Assembly: GCA_030650605.1 (NCBI GenBank)
Contig: JAUSDP010000035.1
Coordinates: forward strand, 1-63,425
Source of the DNA: a bacterium
Lineage (GTDB): Bacteria; Patescibacteriota; Minisyncoccia; Phycocordibacterales; Zambryskibacteraceae
Length of the DNA stretch: 63,425 nucleotides
Direction of reading: 5' to 3'
The notes beneath the pieces were generated by a model. It searched no databases, was not told the DNA's origin, and saw nothing but the letters and a program-made list of their open reading frames with translations. The translations under genes and the position numbers were made by a program. Of the stretch, positions 2,685 through 61,436 are shown piece after piece (within the stretch, counting starts at the first letter, position 1; every line of letters begins with the position of its first letter).

Positions 2685-3221
2685 TTAGATCGGGCATGAG
2701 CCGTACTGCCATACGACATTACCGATTGATGCCGCACCTTGTGTAGTGGTTGTAGCTTCTTGACCAGGAAGACCGAATGTCAACCTAACTGCTGTGTCGG
2801 TTGAAGTCGCATACATTTGTACGCACCCAACTTGAATGGTTGAGGTGGCAGAATTGGAAGTCGTAATAACAAGCGCTCCACTACCACCGCTCATAGTAAC
2901 GTCTCCCGTAAGAACAGAAGTACCTGTTACCGCAAGCGTACCTGCAGTGGCAATATTCCCATTTGTTGCCGTCGTCGTTGCGAAACCATTAACCATGAAG
3001 TTCCCAGTCTGGGAAGTAATGGTTGATGATGCATTTGTTAGAGTCGTGACGCCGGTAACACCGAGCGTTCCGGTAATCGTGGCGTTGCCATCCGTCGTGA
3101 TGTTGGTGCTAATAGTCGTTACCGCATTTGCCACAAGCGAAATGAGCAAAACTCCAAACACTACAGTAAGAACGACGGAAATTATTTTCGTCATCCTATC
3201 GTTATTAATTATATTATTCAT
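2685..3221 (-). CDS. anchored/secreted Thr-Gly-rich beta-repeat protein
   Basis: N-terminal hydrophobic segment IISVVLTVVFGVLLISLVANA followed by repetitive T/G/A/V-rich sequence. The antisense ORF 2836-3237 is a low-complexity mirror. Confidence 0.5.
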   Translation of the reverse strand: MNNIINNDRMTKIISVVLTVVFGVLLISLVANAVTTISTNITTDGNATITGTLGVTGVTTLTNASSTITSQTGNFMVNGFATTTATNGNIATAGTLAVTGTSVLTGDVTMSGGSGALVITTSNSATSTIQVGCVQMYATSTDTAVRLTFGLPGQEATTTTQGAASIGNVVWQYGSCPI

Positions 3222-3300: not shown

Positions 3301-3380
3301 TGTGGATAACCCCGTAAAGCTCGCCTCGCGTAAAGCGACGTGGTCGCCACGCGACTTTACGTCGTGCTCGCCACGGGGCA
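3301..3380. repeat. 80-nt hairpin-forming intergenic repeat, copy A (begins with TGTGGATAA)
   Basis: About 90 percent identical to 5669-5746. Outer stem CCCCGT/ACGGGG; inner stem CGTAAAG..CGTGG-TCG-CCACG..CTTTACG. Confidence 0.85.
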
Positions 3381-3461: not shown

Positions 3462-5507
3462 TTACGGGAAGGAAACGTCAGCTGTTCTCCAGTCAGTCTC
3501 ACCAGCCATGAAGGTAGTGGTCTGAACAGTACCAGTAGTAGCATTCCACCACTGGATACCTTCGAAGCCTATAGCATAGAGGCCTGCTGATAGAACTGTA
3601 CCACCAGGTTCTCTTCCTTCAATTTTGAAGGTGACAGGAATGGTAACATCGTTACCATCAGTTAACGTACAACTATTCGTACCAGTTGATGTACAACCAG
3701 AAGGAATGGTGTAAGAGGTTGAGGTAGCACTAGAGACCGCACCGTCATAAGCACCGTTTCGGTAAACCTTGAACGAAGCTGTGGAGCTTGCGATTACTGG
3801 CGTACCAGAAGCGACGGTACCAAGAGTCAAAGTACCACCAACTGCCTTAACCTTGACATTGAAGGTCGCAGTCAAGGTAGAGGTACTCTTGGTCAAGGTG
3901 TCATTTGTCTGAGACACACCGTTAGTGATAATTGACTTGGAGACCAAGGTTACTTCAGGACCAACTTTCCTGACAGTAATGGTCTTGCCTTGGGCAGAAC
4001 CAGTCTCTGTGACAGACGAACCAGCAGAGTTTTCTGAAGTAACATTTGTGGCAACGGCGTTTGTAGCACCGATATCGGCTGCAAATGTTGTTGCTAGAAG
4101 GCCAGCAGTATCGATGTCCACCTTGAAGGTAAGGGTTCTCGTGGTATCAGCTGGAACAATCCAGTCAATATCAGAGAAGGTAAAGCTTCCTGCCGCAGTA
4201 GTGGTCATGATAATAGAGGCAGACCCTACGAGCGTACTGCCATCGTAGATGTAACCAGTCGTAGACGAAGCAGTTGTGAGAGTAGTACCGCGAACAACGT
4301 CAACAACTAAGTCGGTAACTAGGATTTGATCTTTCTCTCCCTTAAAGTTGAACTTAGCAAGAGTAAGACCGTCAAGCTCATTATCGCTTGAACCCTCACT
4401 GGCAATAACCTGGCTAGTGATAGGACTATCAGTTGCCAGAGATACTGTTAAAGCTGCGCTGTCAACGACATCGGCTGCTGAAGTGAATTCATTATTGAAC
4501 GCAGTGGCAGGTGAGAACTCGTTGATACCAGCACCGTCAACTCCTCGGACACCATCTACAGGAACAGTGACTTTCCAACTATCATTGTCGAAAGTGGAAT
4601 CCCAGCTTGCCTTAGGATCGATAGCGATCGTCAAGACTTTGGTGGCATCCTTTGGAACGATGAAGCTGAAACCAGAAACTGTGACGTAGTAGTCGGAACC
4701 CTCCTTTACAACCGTAGTTGCGTTAAGAGGCATCGATGCTAGGACGGTAGAACCATCCATAACATAGATATTATCAGCAATCTTTGTGTAGAACTGTTGA
4801 TCAGAATTTCCGCTAGTAACGAAGTCGAGCTTGAGTTTTACTCTCTCGATTTTGATATCGGAGATCTTGGCTTCAAGTTTGATGCCTAAGACACCCACCT
4901 TGGCACCGCCTTCATAGGCCTTGGTACCAGAAGCGGGAGTGGCATCTTTTGAAGCAGTAATCGTGCCTTCTACGCCAGGAGTAGTGATAACACCACCTGC
5001 TGTACATGAAGCACCTGTTACTGAATTAAATAGCGCACCTGTTGGACAACCCGGTGTTGGTGTAACTACCGGACCAGGACCTGGGACAACTGCAATCAGT
5101 CCATTTAACCTAGTCCTAGAGATAGGACCGAAGTAACCAACTGCCGGAGAAACTCCGTTAGCGGCTTGCCATCGGGCTACAGCTGCTTTAGTAAGAGAAC
5201 CGAAGTAACCTTTAGAAACACCTACAGGCATTACCAAGTATCCATTGGTTACTAGGTAACTCTGAAGAGCCGATACGTCTGAACCTGTGCTACCAATTGT
5301 GAGATTGGTATTGAAGTTAGAGAGTGCTTGCCCTCCTGTAGCACTACCACCACCCTGAAGAGCGGAGAGCTGTGCCATTAATGCATTGATTTGTGCCTGA
5401 AGATCAGCAATTGACGATTGAGCACCTACCATCGGTACAAAAGAACCGAGAGCAAGTGACGCGCCCACTGCAATTCCAGCGATCTTTGCAATTCTAATTT
5501 TATTCAT
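3462..5507 (-). CDS. large secreted peptidoglycan-binding-domain surface protein
   Basis: Signal peptide, then coiled LQAQINALMAQLSALQ. PG_binding_1-like segment GSTGSDVSALQSYLVTNGYL...YFGSLTKAAVARWQAANGV...GYFGPISRTRL, then about 500 aa of beta-rich T/S/V/G sequence. Confidence 0.65.
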   Translation of the reverse strand: MNKIRIAKIAGIAVGASLALGSFVPMVGAQSSIADLQAQINALMAQLSALQGGGSATGGQALSNFNTNLTIGSTGSDVSALQSYLVTNGYLVMPVGVSKGYFGSLTKAAVARWQAANGVSPAVGYFGPISRTRLNGLIAVVPGPGPVVTPTPGCPTGALFNSVTGASCTAGGVITTPGVEGTITASKDATPASGTKAYEGGAKVGVLGIKLEAKISDIKIERVKLKLDFVTSGNSDQQFYTKIADNIYVMDGSTVLASMPLNATTVVKEGSDYYVTVSGFSFIVPKDATKVLTIAIDPKASWDSTFDNDSWKVTVPVDGVRGVDGAGINEFSPATAFNNEFTSAADVVDSAALTVSLATDSPITSQVIASEGSSDNELDGLTLAKFNFKGEKDQILVTDLVVDVVRGTTLTTASSTTGYIYDGSTLVGSASIIMTTTAAGSFTFSDIDWIVPADTTRTLTFKVDIDTAGLLATTFAADIGATNAVATNVTSENSAGSSVTETGSAQGKTITVRKVGPEVTLVSKSIITNGVSQTNDTLTKSTSTLTATFNVKVKAVGGTLTLGTVASGTPVIASSTASFKVYRNGAYDGAVSSATSTSYTIPSGCTSTGTNSCTLTDGNDVTIPVTFKIEGREPGGTVLSAGLYAIGFEGIQWWNATTGTVQTTTFMAGETDWRTADVSFP

Positions 5508-5668: not shown

Positions 5669-5746
5669 TGTGGATAACCCCGTAAAATTCGCTTCGCGTA
5701 AAGCGACGTGGTCGCCACGCGACTTTACGTCGCTCATCACGGGGCA
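5669..5746. repeat. hairpin-forming intergenic repeat, copy B (begins with TGTGGATAA)
   Basis: Aligns base for base with 3301-3380, apart from a few substitutions and a 2-nt indel near the 3' arm. Confidence 0.85.
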
Positions 5747-5784: not shown

Positions 5785-6387
5785 CTAGGCGAGGAAGTAA
5801 CGACTCCAGCGCTTCTCCCCCACTCTCTTTAGAATACCTGCCTGTACCATAGCGGACAATTCACGTTGAATCGTCTTTTCGCTACAACCATTTATCAGAG
5901 GAGAAACGTCTTTTATCATCACTTCTTTCTTGCGTTTCAAAATAGCGATAATGATGTTTTGTCGACTGTTTTTCTTTACCGAGACGGCCCCAAATTCTTT
6001 CAATGATTTGTCCTTTACTATAAGTCTCTCCTCTAATTTCTTTATATCAGGTTTCGAATAATCAATCTTGAGAATATCTGTGATATCAGCTGGATAAGCA
6101 ATTGTACCAACATATTTCAGTAATTCTTCATGCATAAGATTATGATTCTCCGCAGATATTAATCCAACATTTTTAGCCACGGAAAGAAGTCCTGTTATCT
6201 TTAACACTATGTCTCTTACTTCCAATGGAGTAATTTGTCTTTCTTTAAGAGACACTAAAAGAGTAATGAACTCCGAAGCAAGAGTTCGTAGTTTCCACTT
6301 AAGTGGCTCTAGATCATTGAAAAAACCGGTAATTAAATATATAGCGGAAGCAAGTTTTTCTGGTTTTGTGTCAGTGATATCAGACAT
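5785..6387 (-). CDS. helix-turn-helix transcriptional regulator (C-terminal winged-helix/DeoR-like)
   Basis: C-terminus IKDVSPLINGCSEKTIQRELSAMVQAGILKRVGEKRWSRYFL is a typical wHTH. The N-terminal part is helical. Confidence 0.5.
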   Translation of the reverse strand: MSDITDTKPEKLASAIYLITGFFNDLEPLKWKLRTLASEFITLLVSLKERQITPLEVRDIVLKITGLLSVAKNVGLISAENHNLMHEELLKYVGTIAYPADITDILKIDYSKPDIKKLEERLIVKDKSLKEFGAVSVKKNSRQNIIIAILKRKKEVMIKDVSPLINGCSEKTIQRELSAMVQAGILKRVGEKRWSRYFLA

Positions 6388-17777: not shown

Positions 17778-17856
17778 AGTGGAAGCAGTGTATCAATTAT
17801 TTCCCCAACCCGCTACTACATCTAATTTATACGACCGTGAGCTATAGATGTACAGA

Positions 17857-22681: not shown

Positions 22682-22924
22682 ATGCCAAGAATTTGCCCCG
22701 TAAATAAAAAAGGTTCGAAGATGTGTGGAGGCTACTCCAACCGAACTCGTGCTACCCAATTCAACCCTACTGGGTCTGTTCGCAAGTATCCCAATCTCCA
22801 GAAAAAGCGCATTTATGTACCCGAACTTAAGAAAACTATTACTCTCATCCTCTCCACTCGAGCTATCAAAACCATAAACAAACACGGCGCTCACAGCGTC
22901 CTCAAAAAAGCCGGGGTGATTTAG
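22682..22924 (+). CDS. rpmB: 50S ribosomal protein L28
   Basis: MPRICPVNKKGSKMCGGYSNRTRATQFNPTGSVRKYPNLQKKRIYVPE.... Confidence 0.85.
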   Translation: MPRICPVNKKGSKMCGGYSNRTRATQFNPTGSVRKYPNLQKKRIYVPELKKTITLILSTRAIKTINKHGAHSVLKKAGVI

Positions 22925-23191: not shown

Positions 23192-23254
23192 TCGCCACAT
23201 CAAGAGAGTCGCCCGTCGGTCCACGCTTCTCGGTGTGGCGACTTTCTTTATTTC
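23190..23254 (+). terminator. long hairpin with T-rich tail after the 56-aa ORF
   Basis: AGTCGCCACA (23190-23199) pairs with TGTGGCGACT (23234-23243) around a GC-rich internal segment, followed by TTCTTTATTT. Confidence 0.5.
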
Positions 23255-23364
23255 AAATCCAAAATTTTACCGTACGTCTCAAGTTTGATAATGCAGGAGT
23301 TGATGGTGCTTACAATTTTGGCGCCGATTTTTTACTGGATTGATAGAATAGGATTATTTAACTT

Positions 23365-23398
23365 ACGTTATTAGTTCACGATCGTGAGTTATTAACGT
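23365..23398. promoter_or_regulatory. 34-bp symmetric site D1 (downstream of 23441-24007)
   Basis: ACGTTA-TTAGT-TCACGATCGTGA-GTTAT-TAACGT. Perfect 12-bp palindromic core and palindromic outer arms. Same orientation and layout as U1. Confidence 0.7.
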
Positions 23399-23440
23399 AT
23401 ATAGTGAAGTAGCGAAGTAATGAAATAGTAAAATTTTCGA

Positions 23441-24007
23441 CTAAACTAAATCAAAAAATTCGCGGAGGTGTTTATCGTTTTCAATTTCATCAACAATGAG
23501 ATAAAGAATGTTCTTCCCCACCCCAAGATCAGATTTGAGAAGCGTTAGAATATCTTCGCAATCATACGGATATACCCAAACACTATCTTGCAAGAGATAG
23601 AAACCTGCTGATCTAAATAGAGTTCTGACCTGATCACGTATCTTTCTTTTCTTTTCTGGGATATCAAAAATGATTACTCTCCATTTTTTATCCCATTTCT
23701 TTGGTTTTTCCAGTTTAAAATCGGCAAATTGCCAATTACGAAGGACTTCTTCTCCTTTAGAGGTCATGCAATATCTCTTACCATCATAAAAGAGTAACCC
23801 TCGTTTAACCAACTTACTTGCAGAAGAACTGATATATTCATTTTGTCTCCGCTTTGGAACTAGACCCAGCTTGTGCATAGACTTGGCCACATTTGGCGCC
23901 ACTAGAGCGACACTTAACATTCCTACATTCGCCACAACCTGAAGAATCATTTTTTGTAAATGCTCACGATTGCCTTTCTTTTTACTTTTTTCTTCAATCT
24001 TGCCCAT
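23441..24007 (-). CDS. wHTH + Cas2/PaaX-fold domain protein (paralog 1)
   Basis: 188 aa. Hydrophobic N-terminal helix, then KLVKRGLLFYDGKRYCMTSKGEEVL (winged-helix-like), then WDKKWRVIIFDIPEKKRKIRDQVRTLFRSAGFYLLQDSVWVYPYD (W-x-W-R-hhhFDIPE...GF..LQ.SVW.YP, as in the PaaX middle domain / Cas2-like ferredoxin fold). Confidence 0.6.
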   Translation of the reverse strand: MGKIEEKSKKKGNREHLQKMILQVVANVGMLSVALVAPNVAKSMHKLGLVPKRRQNEYISSSASKLVKRGLLFYDGKRYCMTSKGEEVLRNWQFADFKLEKPKKWDKKWRVIIFDIPEKKRKIRDQVRTLFRSAGFYLLQDSVWVYPYDCEDILTLLKSDLGVGKNILYLIVDEIENDKHLREFFDLV

Positions 24008-24041
24008 ACGTTAATCATTCACGATAGTGATATTATAACGT
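24008..24041. promoter_or_regulatory. 34-bp symmetric site U1 (abuts the start codon of 23441-24007; overlaps a -10 box)
   Basis: ACGTTA-ATCAT-TCACGATAGTGA-TATTA-TAACGT. On the coding strand this reads ...ACGTTATAATATCACTATCGTGA..., i.e. TATAAT 24 nt before the ATG with the palindrome just downstream. Confidence 0.7.
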
Positions 24042-24097
24042 ATATAGAAATTTGATTATCCACAATATTTTAATGTCCTCAACAAAGCCGGGGTTAT

Positions 24098-24994
24098 TTA
24101 AAATTCACCAATAAAGCTGATTTCGGGTTCAAGTTTGTGGCCGGTTTCTTTAAAAACTTTTTCTTGAACAAGGGTGATCAATTCACGAACATTTCGCGCG
24201 GTGGCATTTCCTGTATTCACAATATAATTTGCATGCTTTTCAGGAATAAGCGCTCCGCCGATTTGTTTCCCTTTCAGTCCACATTTTTCTATTAGACGAC
24301 CAGCACCAATTCCTTCTATTTTCTTAAACACTGAGCCGCAGGAAGGAAAGCTTGATAATTGTGTTTGTTTTTGGTTTCTCCAATCCAAGTTAGCGGATAT
24401 TTGAGTTTGAATAAGTTTAGGATCTTTACTCTCTAATTCAAAAGTGGTTTCCAACACGCATATGTCTTTATTGTGATGCAAAATACTGTCGTCATATCCA
24501 AATTTGAAATAATCTTTCTCAACTTTCTTTTCTATTACACCCTCTAGAACCAAACCATGCTTAACTATCGACTCGATAAAAATGGTACTGGCCCGATCTG
24601 GTGATAAAAAGTGGAGATTCTGACGAATAGCCCCACCCACAGTACCGGGTATTCCAGCAAAATGTTCTAAACCGGAGAGACCTCTTTCTAGAGATCGACC
24701 GATTAAATCAGATATGACAGCGCCACTTTCTGCTATCAATAACTCGCCATCAAATTTGAAATTTTGAGCCTTATTATATATCACTAATCCTCTAAATCCT
24801 CCATCTCCGACCAAAATATTTGACCCACCACCTAAAACAAAAAAGGGTATACTTCTTTCTTTTGACCAATTAATTGCTTTTACCAAATCATCTTTATTAT
24901 TAGCCGTAAAAAAGTAATCAGCCTTCCCGCCAATTTTATAAGTGGTGTAGGGCGCGAGTACTACATTTTCTTTAAGATTAGTGAGGGTGGGCAT
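24098..24994 (-). CDS. murB: UDP-N-acetylenolpyruvoylglucosamine reductase
   Basis: YTTYKIGGKADYFF, FVLGGGSNILV, GIPGTVGGAIRQN, and the C-terminal MurB domain ...GSVFKK...AG.LIE.CGLKG. Confidence 0.9.
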   Translation of the reverse strand: MPTLTNLKENVVLAPYTTYKIGGKADYFFTANNKDDLVKAINWSKERSIPFFVLGGGSNILVGDGGFRGLVIYNKAQNFKFDGELLIAESGAVISDLIGRSLERGLSGLEHFAGIPGTVGGAIRQNLHFLSPDRASTIFIESIVKHGLVLEGVIEKKVEKDYFKFGYDDSILHHNKDICVLETTFELESKDPKLIQTQISANLDWRNQKQTQLSSFPSCGSVFKKIEGIGAGRLIEKCGLKGKQIGGALIPEKHANYIVNTGNATARNVRELITLVQEKVFKETGHKLEPEISFIGEF

Positions 24995-24999
24995 TCAAA

Positions 25000-25863
25000 T
25001 TATTTAATTTTTAGAGTCTTACCATCCGTTTCAAATTTTATAGTGCTAGATTCGGTGGTGCTGACTATTTTAGCACCGATTTTTTCTAAAATATCAAGGA
25101 CTTCTTTATGCGGATGGCCGTAGGTGTTATCAAGGCCTGCAGAGATAACAGCATACTCTGGGGAAACAGCCTCGGCGTAAACAAGAGATGTAGAAGTGCG
25201 TGAACCATGATGACCAGCTTTCAAAACATTAGAATCCAGAAGATTTTGACCAAAATTGAGTAAAACGTTTTCTATTCTTATAGGCGAATCACCAGTCAGC
25301 AAGAAAGATTTATCTTTATAGACGAGTCTCGCTACTATTGAAGCGCTATTTGTCTCCCAGTTAGAAACATCTTGACCATAAAGAGGAAAAAGGATTTGAA
25401 ATTTTGCCCCATCGCCGAAATTAATAACCATACCTCTTTTCGCCAAGAGCTTGGGAATATTTTTCTGTTCAAGTCTATTTTTTAATTCGTCATCAATATT
25501 ATTTTCCGATTCCACTCCGGGCTCAAGAAATAGTCCCACATCATAACGACTCACTACTTCTGGCAGACCCCCGATATGATCTTTATCTGGGTGAGTTTCC
25601 ACCATTACATCTATGCGCTTATCGGCAAAGGGTAAAATTTTTCCAAGTTCGCTCAAAACTTTTCTATTTGCCCCACCATCAACAAGAACCCTACTATGTC
25701 TAGGTGAATCTATAAGAATTGCATCACCTTGACCAACATCGAGAAAATAGACAGCCAGAATATCACTCGGTCGCCTCTGATAAATTGTAACCCAGACAAA
25801 GATATTCGATATAATAAGTGCGCCAACTAACGCCTCTCTGGTGTATTTCCTGATAAAATCCAT
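25000..25863 (-). CDS. comEC: ComEC C-terminal metallo-beta-lactamase domain protein (stand-alone)
   Basis: Start taken at Met74 of the track ORF (MDFIRKY..., ATG at 25863), because the upstream extension overlaps the divergent gene. One TM, then LDVGQGDAILI, ETHPDKDHIGG, AGHHGSRTS. Confidence 0.7.
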   Translation of the reverse strand: MDFIRKYTREALVGALIISNIFVWVTIYQRRPSDILAVYFLDVGQGDAILIDSPRHSRVLVDGGANRKVLSELGKILPFADKRIDVMVETHPDKDHIGGLPEVVSRYDVGLFLEPGVESENNIDDELKNRLEQKNIPKLLAKRGMVINFGDGAKFQILFPLYGQDVSNWETNSASIVARLVYKDKSFLLTGDSPIRIENVLLNFGQNLLDSNVLKAGHHGSRTSTSLVYAEAVSPEYAVISAGLDNTYGHPHKEVLDILEKIGAKIVSTTESSTIKFETDGKTLKIK

Positions 25864-33659: not shown

Positions 33660-33777
33660 TTGATTGTGAGGAACTTGACTTATTTTTAAGTATGAAGCAT
33701 ACAGAGATGTTGCCTACGTAGATTTAGATAACATACAAAAAATTTCATTCGAGAAAGAATAACTATAAAACATACAT

Positions 33778-33811
33778 ACGCTACTTTCATGCTATAGCAT
33801 TATATTAACGT
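33778..33811. promoter_or_regulatory. 34-bp symmetric site D2 (downstream of 33844-34410)
   Basis: ACGCTA-CTTTC-ATGCTATAGCAT-TATAT-TAACGT. Perfect 12-bp palindromic core. Same layout as D1/U1 but a different core. Confidence 0.7.
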
Positions 33812-33843
33812 ATTAAATAAATGATAAATAAGGAAAAAGAAGA

Positions 33844-34410
33844 TTAAATTAGAGCGAAATCTTCTCGTAGATGTTTGTCATTTTCTAGTTCATCAACAAT
33901 TAAATACAGTAAATGCTTACCAACGCCGAAATCAGTCTTTAATAATGTGATGATATCTTCACAATCATAAGGATATACCCAAACACTATCCTGAAGACGA
34001 AGAAATCCTGTTTGCCGAAAGAGCATGGTAATGTAATTTCTAATATTCTTTTTCTTCTCTGGGATATCAAAGATCATTACTCTCCACTTTTTGTCCCATC
34101 TCTTTGGTTTCTTCAATCGAAAATCAGCAAATTGCCAACGATGTAAAAGTTTCTCCCCGTCAGAAGTCAAACAATATTTTTTACCATTATAAGAAAGGAG
34201 TCCCCGTTTAACCAATTTACTTGCCGAAGAAGCTATATATTCTCTCTGCCTAATATTTGTAATAACGCCCAGCTTGCTAAGTGCTTTTATTACATTGGGG
34301 GCTACAAGACCTATACTCAAGACCCCTACGGTCGCTATTGTTTGCAAAATAGCATATTGCAAATTTTTACGCTTGGATTTTTCCCTACTTTTCTCTTCAA
34401 GTTTTCCCAT
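33844..34410 (-). CDS. wHTH + Cas2/PaaX-fold domain protein (paralog 2)
   Basis: 188 aa, collinear with 23441-24007 and roughly two thirds identical by eye. WDKKWRVMIFDIPEKKKNIRNYITMLFRQTGFLRLQDSVWVYPYD. Confidence 0.6.
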   Translation of the reverse strand: MGKLEEKSREKSKRKNLQYAILQTIATVGVLSIGLVAPNVIKALSKLGVITNIRQREYIASSASKLVKRGLLSYNGKKYCLTSDGEKLLHRWQFADFRLKKPKRWDKKWRVMIFDIPEKKKNIRNYITMLFRQTGFLRLQDSVWVYPYDCEDIITLLKTDFGVGKHLLYLIVDELENDKHLREDFALI

Positions 34411-34444
34411 ACGCTATATTAATGCTATAGCATAATTATAACGT
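34411..34444. promoter_or_regulatory. 34-bp symmetric site U2 (abuts the start codon of 33844-34410; overlaps a -10 box)
   Basis: ACGCTA-TATTA-ATGCTATAGCAT-AATTA-TAACGT. The coding strand reads ACGTTATAATTATGCTATAGCAT, i.e. TATAAT 24 nt before the ATG. Confidence 0.7.
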
Positions 34445-34472
34445 ATATGTTTGTTTATTACTAATTTATTTA

Positions 34473-57594: not shown

Positions 57595-57660
57595 TTATTT
57601 CTTTGTCAGACAGTAAATCTCGTTAGCGTAAGTGGGAAAAAAACCTTCGGAGTAGCATAC
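57595..57660 (-). pseudogene. relic 1 of the 3' end of the PRTase::beta-propeller gene
   Basis: The minus strand translates FFPTYANEIYCLTKK*, compared with FFLPTYANEIYCLEVKLPVP* at 59688. A 23-nt block is identical (57614-57636 = 59719-59741). Confidence 0.75.
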
Positions 57661-58378: not shown

Positions 58379-58492
58379 TCATTTGCTCTTTATAAGACAA
58401 AAGAGTTCATTGGCATAAGTCAGAAGAAAAAACCTTTTTATGACCACATTATATGCCGGTCTGTTTGTAATTCTTTCCGTAACCTGAAAATG
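58379..58492 (-). pseudogene. relic 2 of the 3' end of the PRTase::beta-propeller gene
   Basis: The minus strand translates FQVTERITNRPAYNVVIKRFFLLTYANELFCLIKSK*, compared with FQVTERITNRPAYNAITKKFFLPTYANEIYCLEVKLPVP*. A 37-nt block has 3 mismatches (58446-58482 vs 59765-59801). Confidence 0.8.
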
Positions 58493-59687: not shown

Positions 59688-61436
59688 TTAAGGAACGGGT
59701 AATTTTACCTCGAGACAATAAATCTCGTTAGCGTAAGTGGGGAGAAAAAACTTTTTGGTAATCGCATTATACGCCGGTCTGTTTGTGATTCTTTCCGTTA
59801 CTTGGAAAAAGCCTGTCGATTTGCCATTTTTCGGATCAATTTCATAAAGACGCCCGTTATTTGCTCCAACATAAAGCCGATCCTCAATAATAACTGGCGT
59901 AGAAAATATCCGCGTGCCAACATTAAACTTCCAAGCCAATTGTTTCGTGTCAAGATTTAAACAATACACGAATTTATCAAGCGAGGTAAAAATAACCTTA
60001 TTTCCATAAACTATCGGAGTAGAATACATACCTGCTCGCATCTCATATTTAATCACTGGTTTCCCCGATTTCAAATCAAGACCATAGAAATTACCGTCAA
60101 ACGACCCGAAAAGAAGTAGGTTTCTCTTTTCATCAAAAGTCAGAGATGCTTTAATTTCACCATCGGTTTTATAACGCCAAAGCAATTCCCCGTTTTCCGC
60201 TTTAAAAAGATACACCGTTGAATCATTACCACCGATAGCAACAAGACCTTTTGATTGTGAGTACGCTGGCGAGCAATGCACGTATTCGGACATAATGTAC
60301 TGCCATTTTTTTTCGCCAGTATCTAAATCAAGAGCCACTATTCCCCCCTTTTTATTCCATAGTCCGAATTCAAGACCGATAAAAAGCAAGTTAAGATCTG
60401 GCGCTAATGTGGGGGAAGAACCTACCCAGTCTGCCTCCATAAAAATCCATTTCGGTTTCCCGGTCGCGGTATCCAGAGCATAAACATTACCATCATACGA
60501 GCCAAAATAGACACAATTTTGCCCAAGTACCGGAGAAGAAAAGATGCTTTTGCCCTGTGCATGCCAGCCAACTTTGTATTTCCAAGCCACTGATCCGTCG
60601 CTTTGATTAAGAGCCCAGAAATCACCACTATCACTACCAAAATAAATTTTTTCGTCATCTATTACCGGCGCAGATTTCGGCACCACGTAGAAATAATTAG
60701 GATTATCGCTCTTAAAATACCAGATGATATCGAAATTATTTGTAGGTAATTTTTTTTCTTCTCTCTTTAGAAGAGGTATGCCAAAATCAGACAGAGATAT
60801 TAATGAAGTAAGCTCAATATTTTTCTCATTCAAAAAAGAAAAATTTTCGAAATCCCTGAAATTCATTAAGGTAAAAATATGGGAAACTTTTTTCCCCAAC
60901 TGCCCTAAAACCTCAAGTTGCCTGACAAAGGTGCCGCCGCTATTGATCAAATCATCAACTAATATGATTTTCTCATCATTGAGAGTACCCTCCACAATTT
61001 TTTGAAGCCCATCTTTTTTTCTTGACTTTCTTAAATAAAAACCGTTCACTGGCATCCCCAGCTCCCAGCCCTTCATAACAATCGCCGAAATTAAAGGAAT
61101 AGCCGCTGTTTCTTGTCCCCCAACCTGGAATGGGTACTGCTCCTTGAAACGTTTCCAAAAAATTTCTGCAATGAGATCAAGACACTCCGGTTTTAGCAAT
61201 ATCTTTCTAAAATCAAAGAGCCACTTGCTATCACTACCGTGGGAAGAAACTATTTTCTGATCTTGTGCCGTAACTAAAACGTCACGTTTAATTATTTCCT
61301 TCAATTTTTGGATTTCTGCGTCAAAAGCAGTCATAAGACACATCTTAGCATTACTGGACATTCTACGGTAAAATTCGAGTAAACACATGAAAACGATCAT
61401 TTTCTGGAACGTTAATGGAAATCTCTCAGGTGGCAA
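59688..61436 (-). CDS. PyrE-like phosphoribosyltransferase fused to a PQQ-like beta-propeller
   Basis: N-terminal ...GGQETAAIPLISAIV...FYLRKSRKKDGLQKIVEGTLNDEKIILVDDLINSGGT (type I PRTase PRPP loop). Then about 7 repeats such as YFGSDSGDFWALNQSDGSVAWKY and YFGSYDGNVYALDTATGKPKW. The true start is uncertain: the track start is TTG, and ATG candidates lie 25-33 codons downstream of it. Confidence 0.65.
   Translation of the reverse strand: MPPERFPLTFQKMIVFMCLLEFYRRMSSNAKMCLMTAFDAEIQKLKEIIKRDVLVTAQDQKIVSSHGSDSKWLFDFRKILLKPECLDLIAEIFWKRFKEQYPFQVGGQETAAIPLISAIVMKGWELGMPVNGFYLRKSRKKDGLQKIVEGTLNDEKIILVDDLINSGGTFVRQLEVLGQLGKKVSHIFTLMNFRDFENFSFLNEKNIELTSLISLSDFGIPLLKREEKKLPTNNFDIIWYFKSDNPNYFYVVPKSAPVIDDEKIYFGSDSGDFWALNQSDGSVAWKYKVGWHAQGKSIFSSPVLGQNCVYFGSYDGNVYALDTATGKPKWIFMEADWVGSSPTLAPDLNLLFIGLEFGLWNKKGGIVALDLDTGEKKWQYIMSEYVHCSPAYSQSKGLVAIGGNDSTVYLFKAENGELLWRYKTDGEIKASLTFDEKRNLLLFGSFDGNFYGLDLKSGKPVIKYEMRAGMYSTPIVYGNKVIFTSLDKFVYCLNLDTKQLAWKFNVGTRIFSTPVIIEDRLYVGANNGRLYEIDPKNGKSTGFFQVTERITNRPAYNAITKKFFLPTYANEIYCLEVKLPVP

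Follow-up and report, generated by a model that had tools for sequence, protein, structure and literature searches.

A PaaX-like, Cas2-fold gene family of Paceibacteria flanked on both sides by matching palindromes that are candidate operators

Within the window, the whole 63,425-nt stretch of DNA that was analysed, which comes from an ultra-small bacterium (CPR/Patescibacteria), a single gene encoding a 188-aa protein lies between two direct copies of a symmetric site, and the question raised by this locus is whether such a unit is a repressor gene with its own operators or a segment of DNA that its own product can move. Both readings were put forward in an earlier note made from the sequence alone, one being an autoregulated repressor with a second, distal operator and the other an excisable or mobile one-gene cassette whose Cas2-like domain acts on the flanking sites. 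The positions and sequences given there for the two sites and the trailing ATATAG proved correct on re-checking: the inner 34 bp of the upstream site U1 (24008-24041) read ACGTTAATCATTCACGATAGTGATATTATAACGT and those of the downstream site D1 (23365-23398) read ACGTTATTAGTTCACGATCGTGAGTTATTAACGT, with ATATAG next in each case. A repeat finder places both in a 41-nt direct repeat (23364-23404 and 24007-24047), each copy of which is palindromic, and its 80% identity agrees with the approximate figure in the note. The symmetric unit at this locus is really 36-38 bp, of the form (A)TAC...GTA(T), and the last bases of U1 therefore overlap the start codon (Table 1). The TATAAT described ahead of the ATG is present on the coding strand of U1; D1 has the same orientation as U1, ends 41 nt beyond the stop codon and is without the -10 hexamer. 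The arm and core pattern, allowing up to three mismatches, occurs in the 63 kb only at the positions of U1 and D1 and gives 0 matches in 100 shuffles, which rules out a chance or low-complexity origin of the sites. U1 is 100% identical in two orthologous loci (L081 and L002) despite indels in the flanking DNA, and D1 differs from the L081 copy at 1 of 36 positions despite a 16-nt indel between stop codon and site.

Table 1. Family genes, palindromic sites and candidate promoter element in the window.
Feature	Position	Strand	Description and basis
Locus-1 gene	23441..24007	(-)	188 aa; ORF, Pfam PF20803, AlphaFold model, Foldseek
U1	24007..24042		Upstream 36-bp palindromic site; proposed promoter and operator
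D1	23364..23399		Downstream 36-bp copy of U1; proposed auxiliary operator
TATAAT hexamer	24032..24037	(-)	Within U1; proposed -10 box; ends 24 nt before ATG
Paralogous gene	33844..34410	(-)	188 aa, 69% identical to locus-1 protein; tblastn and ORF
U2	34410..34445		Upstream site of the paralog, abuts ATG; TACGCTA-TATTA-ATGCTATAGCAT-AATTA-TAACGTA
D2	33777..33812		Downstream site of the paralog; core ATGCTATAGCAT, as in U2
Lone site	17817..17852		36 bp, third type (TACATCTA...TAGATGTA)

A second locus in the window repeats the two-sided layout with a different core, common to its own two sites, and no further copy of either site type is present in the 63 kb. A third type is represented by a lone site between the stop codon of a glycyl-tRNA synthetase gene and the start codon of an M16 peptidase gene, with no family gene adjoining. 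In other contigs, sites of the TACATCTA type border family genes, and in several contexts that recur they are found on their own; the slot taken by the lone site in the window is occupied in another contig (L033) by a complete cassette, that is a gene with its two sites, of another type. The earlier note had implied that the sites occur only around the gene; its two-sided flanking stands, and the assumption of exclusivity is incomplete because lone copies exist.

The protein is related to two well-known families and belongs cleanly to neither. Pfam assigns residues 103-175 of the locus-1 protein to PaaX_M (PF20803, Cas2-like; 7.5e-21, 74.5 bits against a cut-off of 24) together with a weak winged-helix match, and finds no match in its 188 aa to the C-terminal ligand domain PaaX_C. 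An AlphaFold model built with 90 diverse sequences (pLDDT 75) predicts a winged helix followed by a beta-alpha-beta-beta-alpha-beta fold, and among structures matching it Foldseek ranks E. coli PaaX first (8A39, 5e-5), with Rv0674 (3KFW) also near the top. The PaaX profile TIGR02277 (cut-off 264.55 bits) gives 31.5 bits and is matched only over positions 36-139 of 279, the Cas2 profile TIGR01573 scores 26.2 bits with the locus-1 protein and 18.8 bits with the paralog (cut-off 24.5) over its first half only, and Pfam CRISPR_Cas2 (PF09827) reaches 17.8 bits against a cut-off of 23.8. Family members are labelled 'Cas2' or 'PaaX' in databases, several records calling them Cas2, and neither name is apt, since the protein departs from each family in defining features. 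The Cas2-like domain carries the motif (I/V)xFDI...K.R...LQxSVW; D115 (motif IFDIP, end of strand beta-1) presumably aligns with the metal-binding catalytic aspartate of Cas2, is invariant in 20 close relatives and is kept in at least 90% of 90 diverse members, the corresponding residue being E in E. coli PaaX and S in Rv0674. As this domain is conserved more than the DNA-reading half and retains the FDI...LQxSVW signature that is absent from E. coli PaaX and Rv0674, its sequence hints at a role beyond dimerisation.

The C-terminal domain resembles Cas2 (TIGR01573 / PF09827) in its beta-alpha-beta-beta-alpha-beta topology as well as in the motif. Within the Cas1-Cas2 complex a dimer of Cas2 sits on duplex DNA, and the repeats of CRISPR arrays resemble the present sites in being direct and partly palindromic, with a length of about 30-37 bp. 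Unlike stand-alone Cas2 of about 90-100 aa, which is encoded beside cas1 and a CRISPR array, the domain is here fused to a winged helix, and the repeats enclose its own gene. The window has no CRISPR-like repeat array, and the immediate neighbours in the window and in 48 related contigs are housekeeping genes.

The two-sided flanking that the earlier note had proposed to check across homologues recurs throughout the sample: in 68 of the 76 homologous loci taken from other Paceibacteria genomes the 32-mers on the two sides of the gene match each other, compared with 1 of 75 mismatched controls, so that the same locus-specific site stands on both sides. Relatives number in the thousands and share the layout, each with its own matching site; the family comprises 357 clusters at 50% identity with E <= 1e-30, and at least six family loci occur in one assembled genome. 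Identity between U and D reaches 0.90 (arms) and 0.84 (core) within a locus, as against 0.71 and 0.54 between loci, and the pairs of two loci (L018 and L033) are identical at 36/36 positions. Site-like 36-mers number 175, compared with 0 in shuffled copies of the 0.94 Mb. Their arms of 6-8 bp enclose a spacer of 20-22 bp with a second, central palindrome, the central 12 bp having a self-symmetry of 0.75 and an invariant C16 and G21. In almost every family member the D copy lies 0-80 nt past the stop codon; U and D have the same orientation in 42 cases and the opposite in 11, with shared non-palindromic spacer bases (spacer test p = 3e-4). The distance between U and D gives no clear signal of helical phasing (lowest Rayleigh p ~0.05).

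Neighbouring genes include murB, comEC, rpmB, pgk, tpiA and a HIT-family gene, and their orientation is mixed across loci, which makes the cassette a self-contained unit. A general role of the D site as promoter or operator of the next gene was rejected, since in 41 of 73 loci that gene runs convergently and D mostly has no -10 hexamer. An origin of D as the relic upstream site of a lost tandem paralog was likewise set aside, as D matches the U of its own locus and not another type.

Protein and site are connected by their co-variation. Residue 58, located in the predicted recognition helix, predicts base 4 of the site in 58/58 cases, with Y or F where the base is G (36/36) and I, S, T or V where it is A (22/22), and these switches also occur inside otherwise close clades. 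For the core, the strongest co-variation is with residues 125, 129 and 132, all on the same face of helix alpha-1 in the Cas2-like domain. Site type follows protein phylogeny, and each site class is specific to its protein. The palindromes are thus putative binding sites of the protein encoded between them, an assignment that is very probably correct.

The position of the upstream copies points to what binding might do. At position 6 of the site a TAYAAT hexamer occurs in 34 of the 58 upstream copies and in 7 of the 58 downstream ones; a consensus promoter scan finds no -35 partner for TATAAT. Shine-Dalgarno sequences are barely used in the source organism, and a site abutting the ATG is therefore compatible with translation. 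The first reading of the earlier note is the best supported, given the two-sided layout, the co-variation, the fixed -10 position and the PaaX-like fold and operator, and an autorepressor of truncated PaaX type whose gene is followed by a second operator is favoured here with fair confidence. Negative autoregulation by the protein at the upstream site is the firmer part and is considered likely; a role of the downstream site in looping or as a roadblock is offered more tentatively, the chances being somewhat under even.

In the mechanism proposed, the protein would dimerise via the Cas2-like domain, with the dimeric body over the central 12-bp core and the two winged-helix recognition helices reading the outer arms, TAC[G/A]NNN...NNN[C/T]GTA. 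Of the upstream site, the core would hold the expected transcription start and the right arm the start codon, with the -10 box also inside the site, so that a bound dimer would silence its own gene. The same protein would bind the D copy as an auxiliary operator, which might loop to U for cooperative repression or form a roadblock isolating the small transcription unit from its neighbours. Several paralogs per genome would operate with mutually distinct site specificities, and lone sites would be additional targets of the same proteins.

Known repressors offer partial precedents for this arrangement. PaaX binds TGATTC-N27-GAATCA and represses its own promoter, and its PaaX_C domain is a proposed phenylacetyl-CoA-binding domain (PMC9493321). 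PaaX, which responds to phenylacetyl-CoA in E. coli and Pseudomonas (PDB 8A39; TIGR02277; PF07848, PF20803 and PF08223), shares the N-terminal winged helix and the Cas2-like middle domain, and its operator of 6-bp inverted repeats with a long spacer at its own promoter is similar to the putative geometry here, with 6-8-bp arms, a 20-22-bp spacer and a -10 hexamer inside the site. Unlike PaaX, the family protein has 188 instead of about 300 aa and lacks the C-terminal ligand domain, its spacer contains a central palindrome, its gene has the site at both ends, a genome carries many paralogs that differ in specificity, no paa genes lie nearby, and the Cas2 signature residues lost in PaaX are kept. 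With lambda CI, whose gene is flanked by OR and OL, and with lac O1/O2, a primary operator lies at the promoter and a second one hundreds of bp away. The likeness is that of a repressor gene with one operator at its promoter and another beyond the coding sequence, which a protein oligomer might bridge; unlike in those systems, the second operator is a near-copy of the first, is nearly always 0-80 nt past the stop codon and has no obvious second promoter under its control.

Some features sit less easily with an autorepressor. The protein has no sensor domain, and neither paralog in the window has an evident regulated target besides its own gene. A symmetric dimer leaves the shared orientation of U and D (42 versus 11) and the pairs identical at all 36 positions unexplained.

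An RNA-level element was also weighed, in which the transcript would form one hairpin at its 5' end, masking the AUG, and another 3' of the stop codon, both serving as binding or cleavage targets of the Cas2-like domain in the manner of Cas2/VapD ribonucleases. The palindromes are foldable, the start codon lies in a stem, and sites occur just past upstream stop codons, where 3' hairpins would lie. The sense strand leans towards G:T pairs (52 versus 23 in upstream copies, 42 versus 30 in downstream copies), although mismatches of other kinds are equally common and relatedness among the loci inflates the wobble counts. The perfect co-variation of a recognition-helix residue with an arm base pair and the fold of a DNA-binding repressor speak against RNA as the target, as does the left arm, which lies upstream of the -10 box and is therefore absent from the gene's own transcript. 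Lone sites also occur in either orientation relative to the same neighbour genes (L127 versus L129), and a search of Rfam finds no known RNA family next to them. Such an element is accordingly regarded as very improbable.

The lone sites also bear on a comparison with REP/RAYT systems, in which short palindromes of 20-40 bp fall into classes per genome, the gene is flanked by its own class, and intergenic copies and composite clusters occur. The present genes likewise have their own palindromes on either side, and lone intergenic copies are sometimes clustered. By analogy, the 36-bp palindromes would be dispersed repeats of several classes per genome with a structural role as insulators, roadblocks or 3'-end elements, and the cognate protein would keep or spread its class, its gene being flanked by its own repeats like a RAYT gene. 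In a metagenome scan, copies of the TACATCTA type were lone at about 26 and cassette-linked at about 10 of 38 loci, a ratio that is biased because the scan was seeded with the lone site. These lone copies recur just past the stop codons of tgt, glyS, lysS and dprA (names assigned by eye from translations), are near-identical and abut a site of a second class with a 0-nt gap in five distinct contexts (seven loci), and the association of class and protein is specific. Against this, copy numbers are low, unselected sequence of about 0.73 Mb containing 3-5 lone sites; the protein lacks an HUH/Y1 motif or fold, the upstream copies have a clear promoter geometry, and the lone sites could instead be operators of a small regulon. 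Unlike in REP/RAYT systems, the flanking copies are also mostly direct rather than inverted, and the upstream one appears to be a promoter. A repeat system of this kind is thus considered unlikely, though less so than the RNA-level element. Lone sites often lie just after stop codons, and sometimes between convergent genes or touching a site of another type without a gap, all of which is odd for ordinary operators.

The second reading of the earlier note, an excisable or mobile one-gene cassette, takes the direct copies as recombination sites at which the Cas2-like domain would cut and rejoin, freeing the gene and one site as a circle that may re-enter at lone sites, with the promoter in the left site autoregulating the gene as in many insertion sequences. 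The note had likened the sites to loxP and FRT, which have 13-bp arms and an asymmetric 8-bp spacer and require a tyrosine recombinase. The size of a symmetric site of about 34 bp and its two direct copies around a segment agree with loxP/Cre and FRT/Flp; the arms of 6-8 bp, the palindromic core, which lacks an orientation cue of the loxP-spacer kind, and the absence of a recombinase fold do not. Hits in Pfam, NCBIfam, PADLOC and PHROGs are confined to winged-helix, PaaX_M and Cas2 entries; neither these nor the fold search reveals a domain or motif of the tyrosine, serine, DDE or HUH recombinases, and there is no invariant histidine pair; the Cas2 signature residues, as noted, are kept. Short direct repeats at the flanks are no commoner than in mismatched controls, and a transposon generating short target duplications was rejected on this basis. 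A phage or plasmid origin was similarly rejected, with one distant relative only in 2.9 million viral contigs.

Comparison of genomic positions gives a more divided picture of movement. The mostly direct orientation of U and D with its shared spacer asymmetry, the L033 pair that is identical over exactly the site and not beyond, and an arrangement in L049 of D-U-gene-D with an 80-bp repeat would all suit recombination at the sites. Cassette types in a given slot are not monophyletic, the genes of L013 and L024 in the PGK slot grouping with comEC-slot genes at 93% bootstrap and 'all of one slot' receiving 0%, and the same slots are occupied, empty or reduced to a lone site among different genomes. 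These differences in occupancy are seen only between distant genomes, and the change of cassette type in a slot between genomes is unexplained by the autorepressor model. On the other side, the orthologs P0044 and P0013 each keep one fixed context in 24 contigs from many samples, every cassette of the TACATCTA type adjoins the same CCA-adding-enzyme gene, and relic duplications in L023 and L021 break within the coding region and not at site edges. Paralogs of one and the same genome are only 60-70% identical and have different sites, which argues against recent copying, and the conservation of lone sites amid diverged flanks marks them as functional sites rather than scars. Exact-sequence look-ups with the L28, MurB and PGK proteins of the window returned no matches that could reveal cassette-less alleles. 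With no target duplications, no recombinase or transposase domain, fixed contexts and near-absence from viral contigs, the mobile reading did not hold up well and is judged improbable, at about the level of the repeat system discussed above; the non-monophyletic slots, variable occupancy and shared U/D orientation indicate that cassettes may nevertheless have moved on a long time scale.

A bolder possibility is that the palindromes and the winged-helix/Cas2-like proteins form a new self-propagating system of sites and genes, in which the Cas2-like domain, with its retained aspartate, would nick or recombine the sites. The odds are clearly against it. If it were true, nicking or recombination would create, move or homogenise the 'repeat-gene-repeat' units and the lone repeats, recombination or repeat-copying would take place on a Cas2 fold without Cas1, and the system might be related to the module ancestral to CRISPR repeat handling.

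The favoured reading of a PaaX-type autorepressor has implications of its own for a family of which no description was found in the open literature on PaaX with Cas2, on Cas2-like winged-helix regulators or on PaaX in Patescibacteria, in line with the earlier note, which knew of none. The self-bracketing gene provides a test case for the role of a repressor's second operator behind its gene, whether in looping, in insulation or enzymatic. A Cas2-fold protein appears here to read specific duplex DNA, which is relevant to the recruitment of that fold into CRISPR adaptation. With their proteins, the co-evolving and mutually distinct 36-bp sites would supply experimental work and synthetic biology with ready-made orthogonal pairs of protein and operator, and the correspondence of residue 58 with base 4 offers a readable recognition code. 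For the Paceibacteria themselves, the finding is that tiny genomes with few regulators nevertheless maintain several paralogs of one small protein.

On re-reading of the sequence, locus 1, a gene with an upstream site (U1) and a downstream site (D1), is exactly as the earlier note described it. The layout ACGTTA...TAACGT with up to three mismatches occurs in the window only at D1 and U1 and not at all in 100 shuffles, and a repeat finder returns the two as a 41-nt direct repeat of 80% identity in which each copy is itself palindromic. The symmetric unit is actually 36-38 bp, (A)TAC...GTA(T), so that U1, as a full unit at 24007-24042, overlaps the start codon. A paralog at locus 2 is likewise accompanied by two sites, U2 and D2, with arms ACGCTA/TAACGT and the core ATGCTATAGCAT, which is unlike that of locus 1; the core is thus shared within each locus and differs between the two.

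Coordinates of family genes, sites and neighbouring repeats in the window and, where marked by an L-number, in loci or contigs from other genomes
Feature	Position	Strand	Remarks
Locus-1 ORF	23441-24007	minus	188 aa
D1 34-mer	23365-23398		ACGTTA-N5-TCACGATNGTGA-N5-TAACGT, common to U1
U1 34-mer	24008-24041		ACGTTA-N5-TCACGATNGTGA-N5-TAACGT, common to D1
Locus-2 paralog	33844-34410	minus	tblastn, 69% identical to locus 1
U2	34410-34445		abuts locus-2 ATG
D2, second copy	33777-33812		past locus-2 stop codon
Lone site, TACATCTA...TAGATGTA	17817-17852		between glycyl-tRNA synthetase stop and M16 peptidase start
Abutting site pairs	L127:2812-2883, L107:8305-8376, L097:9728-9799, L109:221-292, L114:3960-4031
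rpmB (L28) 3'-end copy	24075-24100		26 nt, 92% identical to 22898-22923
comEC 3'-end copy	23248-23333		cf. 25000-25085
Downstream site-rpmB segment	22925-23247, L081:6745-7413, L131:3131-3565
Perfect TTATCCACA	24056-24064		14 nt outside U1
Perfect TTATCCACA, others	2014, 3301, 5669, 44401
64-nt repeat	3301-3364, 5669-5732		95% identical
Surface-protein-like genes	2685-3221, 3462-5507	minus
Winged-helix gene	5785-6387	minus	200 aa
36-96-nt repeat	57608-57643, 58395-58490, 59713-59808		spacings 787 and 1318 nt

In Pfam the locus-1 protein hits PaaX_M, a model of the Cas2-like domain in the middle of PaaX, with E = 7.5e-21, and has weak winged-helix and Cas2 matches. The score with NCBIfam PaaX is 31 bits against a cut-off of 265, over the first half of the profile only, while with NCBIfam cas2 locus 1 lies just over the cut-off (26.2 vs 24.5) and locus 2 under it; PADLOC and PHROGs searches returned nothing further on these proteins. 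An AlphaFold model with 90 diverse relatives as input (pLDDT 75) predicts that residues 2-96 form a winged helix-turn-helix and residues 109-184 a beta-alpha-beta-beta-alpha-beta domain. Of the solved structures, E. coli PaaX (8A39, E = 5e-5) and Rv0674 (3KFW) resemble it most closely, with winged-helix proteins and Cas2 as weaker matches. The protein does not count as a bona fide PaaX: it has no C-terminal ligand domain, its score is far below the cut-off, and there are no paa genes around it. Nor is it a bona fide Cas2, being a fusion protein with no CRISPR context. Conservation across the family is highest in the Cas2-like half, which keeps the Cas2-style motif IFDIP...LQDSVWVYPYDCED, whose aligned residues differ in E. 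coli PaaX and Rv0674.

Public data hold more than 1,900 close relatives, or over 3,700 if a broader profile is used, nearly all of 187-190 aa and variously labelled as hypothetical protein, 'Cas2' or 'PaaX family'. All source-labelled relatives are from Patescibacteria/Paceibacteria, and viral contigs have practically no members. It forms 357 clusters at 50% identity with E <= 1e-30, and at least 530 loci are present in species-representative genomes, where one assembled genome often has several. No description of the family or its layout was found in the searchable literature.

The two-sided layout was surveyed at 80 loci from other genomes, 76 of them usable. A 32-mer with at least 24 matches was common to the 120 nt upstream and 170 nt downstream flanks at 68 of the 76, compared with 1 of 75 control pairs of flanks from different loci; the restriction of the site to the upstream side in homologs, which the earlier note had named as speaking against its proposal, is therefore not what is found. 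At 58 loci a TAC...GTA 36-mer directly adjoins the ATG as the upstream copy, with the downstream one starting 0-79 nt past the stop codon. The arms of the two copies of a locus are 90% identical, the cores 84% and the spacers 62%, against 71%, 54% and 42% between loci; TAC, C16, G21 and GTA are invariant. As the next gene past the downstream copy is convergent at 41 of 73 loci and co-directional at 32, this copy is not in general the promoter of another gene, and because it matches its own upstream copy and no other type, it is no relic of a neighbouring paralog.

Along the protein tree, the order of the sequences tracks arm and core type. The predicted recognition helix spans residues 55-68, and its residue 58 is Y or F in 36/36 loci whose site starts with TACG and I, S, T or V in 22/22 starting with TACA, a switch that includes L013, L024 and L015 though their nearest relatives are of the Y/TACG kind. 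This co-variation of residue 58 with the base, and of the tree with site type, is evidence that the protein would read its flanking site. For core positions 13-15 the strongest co-variation is with residues 125, 129 and 132, all on the same face of helix alpha-1 in the Cas2-like domain, a suggestive pattern, though one confounded by phylogeny. In E. coli, PaaX is a repressor of its own promoter and binds TGATTC-N27-GAATCA (PMC9493321), so a widely spaced winged-helix dimer is the family's known binding mode.

The hexamer TAYAAT stands at site positions 6-11 in 34/58 upstream copies vs 7/58 downstream copies, and in U1 it is a TATAAT on the coding strand ending 24 nt before the ATG. Judged by sequence, the upstream copy looks like a promoter with an operator and the downstream copy does not; a consensus promoter scan gave no -35 partner for the hexamer. 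With a start about 7 nt past the hexamer, transcription would begin within the core and give a leader of about 17 nt. Shine-Dalgarno-like 4-mers precede 5 of the 48 window ORFs of at least 150 aa, the same as in random sequence, and the organism seems to initiate translation largely without such sequences; since they are barely used, a site running into the ATG would be no obstacle to translation. Orthologs with about 85% DNA identity match U1 at 38/38 positions and D1 at 35/36, while the interval between stop codon and D1 carries a 16-nt indel; both copies are thus under selection. A role of the palindromes at the RNA level has low likelihood: non-Watson-Crick positions lean to G:T on the sense strand, in counts inflated by related loci, but wobble pairs are matched in number by other mismatches, the left arm falls on the upstream side of the -10 box, and sites without an adjoining family gene (lone sites) occur beside the same genes in both orientations.

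The earlier note also proposed an excisable or mobile one-gene cassette, its Cas2-like domain acting on the flanking sites, and what evidence there is for this reading concerns long time scales. Against it, short direct repeats outside both sites are no commoner than in mismatched controls, there is no recombinase or transposase domain, and contexts are fixed: the exact protein P0044, a locus-2 ortholog, lies in a tpiA-pgk-gene-HIT context in 24/24 contigs read from many samples, and the locus-1 ortholog P0013 keeps murB-gene-rpmB in 24 contigs. Paralogs within one genome are old, at 60-70% identity. In favour of the reading over long time scales, genes of the comEC/murB-rpmB and pgk-HIT slots do not sort into clades by slot: 93% bootstrap joins the PGK-slot pair L013/L024 to comEC-slot genes, and 'all of one slot' receives 0%. 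In line with it, the L054 genome has both slots empty, the two copies of a locus share orientation in 42 cases vs 11 otherwise (spacer test, p = 3e-4), and a few pairs are identical across exactly the site and no further (L033).

The neighbourhood of locus 1 holds gene fragments. Just outside U1, the murB stop codon is adjoined by a copy of the rpmB 3' end that encodes VLNKAGVI*; the corresponding 29 nt in L081, an 85% identical relative, are 100% identical to the window rpmB 3' end. This copy seems to be left over from an ancestral convergent junction of murB and rpmB, which L017 still has. A second fragment, just outside D1 and on the strand of the genuine comEC, duplicates 86-108 nt from the 3' end of its metallo-beta-lactamase domain; it has a stop codon inside in the window and a still open frame (KIGAKIVSTVESGTIKFETDGNTLQFK*) in L081. 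L009, L011, L025 and L036 have comparable fragments after the downstream site, and L006 has one before the upstream site. Between downstream site and rpmB, three related genomes each have a different small gene: the window a 56-aa ORF (with a terminator-like hairpin), L081 an ORF of 158 aa, and the P0013 contigs a glyoxalase-like gene of 144 aa. The cassette keeps its place, and the segment is a local hot spot for variable genes. Gene insertions elsewhere come with long target-like duplications: an 80-bp repeat with the downstream site on both sides of the upstream site and gene (L049, 2830-2960 and 3640-3770), the upstream site and about 10 codons around a 916-aa gene (L023:1107-1190), and an extra upstream site and gene start after a duplicated TrmB-like gene (L021:2346-2420). 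These may reflect single-crossover integration of circular DNA.

Searching with each locus's own site found one lone site in the window, with no family gene nearby; the same slot in L033 holds a complete cassette of a different type. A metagenome scan for the TACATCTA-type site gave 38 loci, of which about 10 flank family genes, always beside a CCA-adding-enzyme gene, and about 26 stand alone, recurring right after the stop codons of tgt, glyS, lysS and dprA (names assigned by eye from translations) and of a 96-aa ORF. These lone sites are conserved amid diverged flanking DNA. In five distinct contexts (7 loci) one abuts a second, ACGTTA-type site with a 0-nt gap, and such end-to-end pairs (TACATCTA... 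and TACGTTA...GTCTATAGAC...) occur in either order in several unrelated contexts. Lone sites are rare (3-5) in sequence not picked for them, about 0.73 Mb around cassettes plus the window, and all sequence examined holds 133 cassette-linked and 42 lone sites vs 0 in shuffles. Their gene-end positions and abutting pairs recall REP-like elements, and they fit further operators of the same proteins. Downstream of the post-tgt lone site is a conserved hairpin stretch, aaaagctgtgtgGAtcgtacgGAcccacacagctggttgtcgg... (L113:5380-5494, L117, L119, L125, L126), with no Rfam match in the three scanned (L119, L125, L126), which could be an unannotated small RNA or leader sequence.

Other repeats were observed in the window. 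The DnaA-box-like TTATCCACA occurs perfectly five times where 0.59 are expected, and with up to one mismatch lies within 60 nt upstream of the upstream site at 21/79 family loci vs 1.6% of control windows. A 64-nt repeat that starts with TGTGGATAA and contains a long palindrome has one copy upstream of each of two surface-protein-like genes; with the adjoining gene for a protein with a C-terminal winged helix, it is probably a separate regulator-operator pair. A further repeat of 36-96 nt has three copies.

The best-supported mechanism is the autoregulated repressor with a distal second operator that the earlier note had offered, for which the two-sided layout, the co-variation and the upstream hexamer are the evidence. 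It leaves unexplained why the second copy is near-universal, and gives no account of the shared orientation, the strong conservation of the Cas2-like half, aspartate included, or the role of lone and abutting sites. By this mechanism, a PaaX-type dimer would bind the bipartite 36-bp palindrome, would repress the promoter of its own gene from the upstream copy and would also occupy the near-identical copy just behind the gene, for looping or insulation, with several orthogonal paralogs of this kind per genome plus a few extra sites elsewhere.
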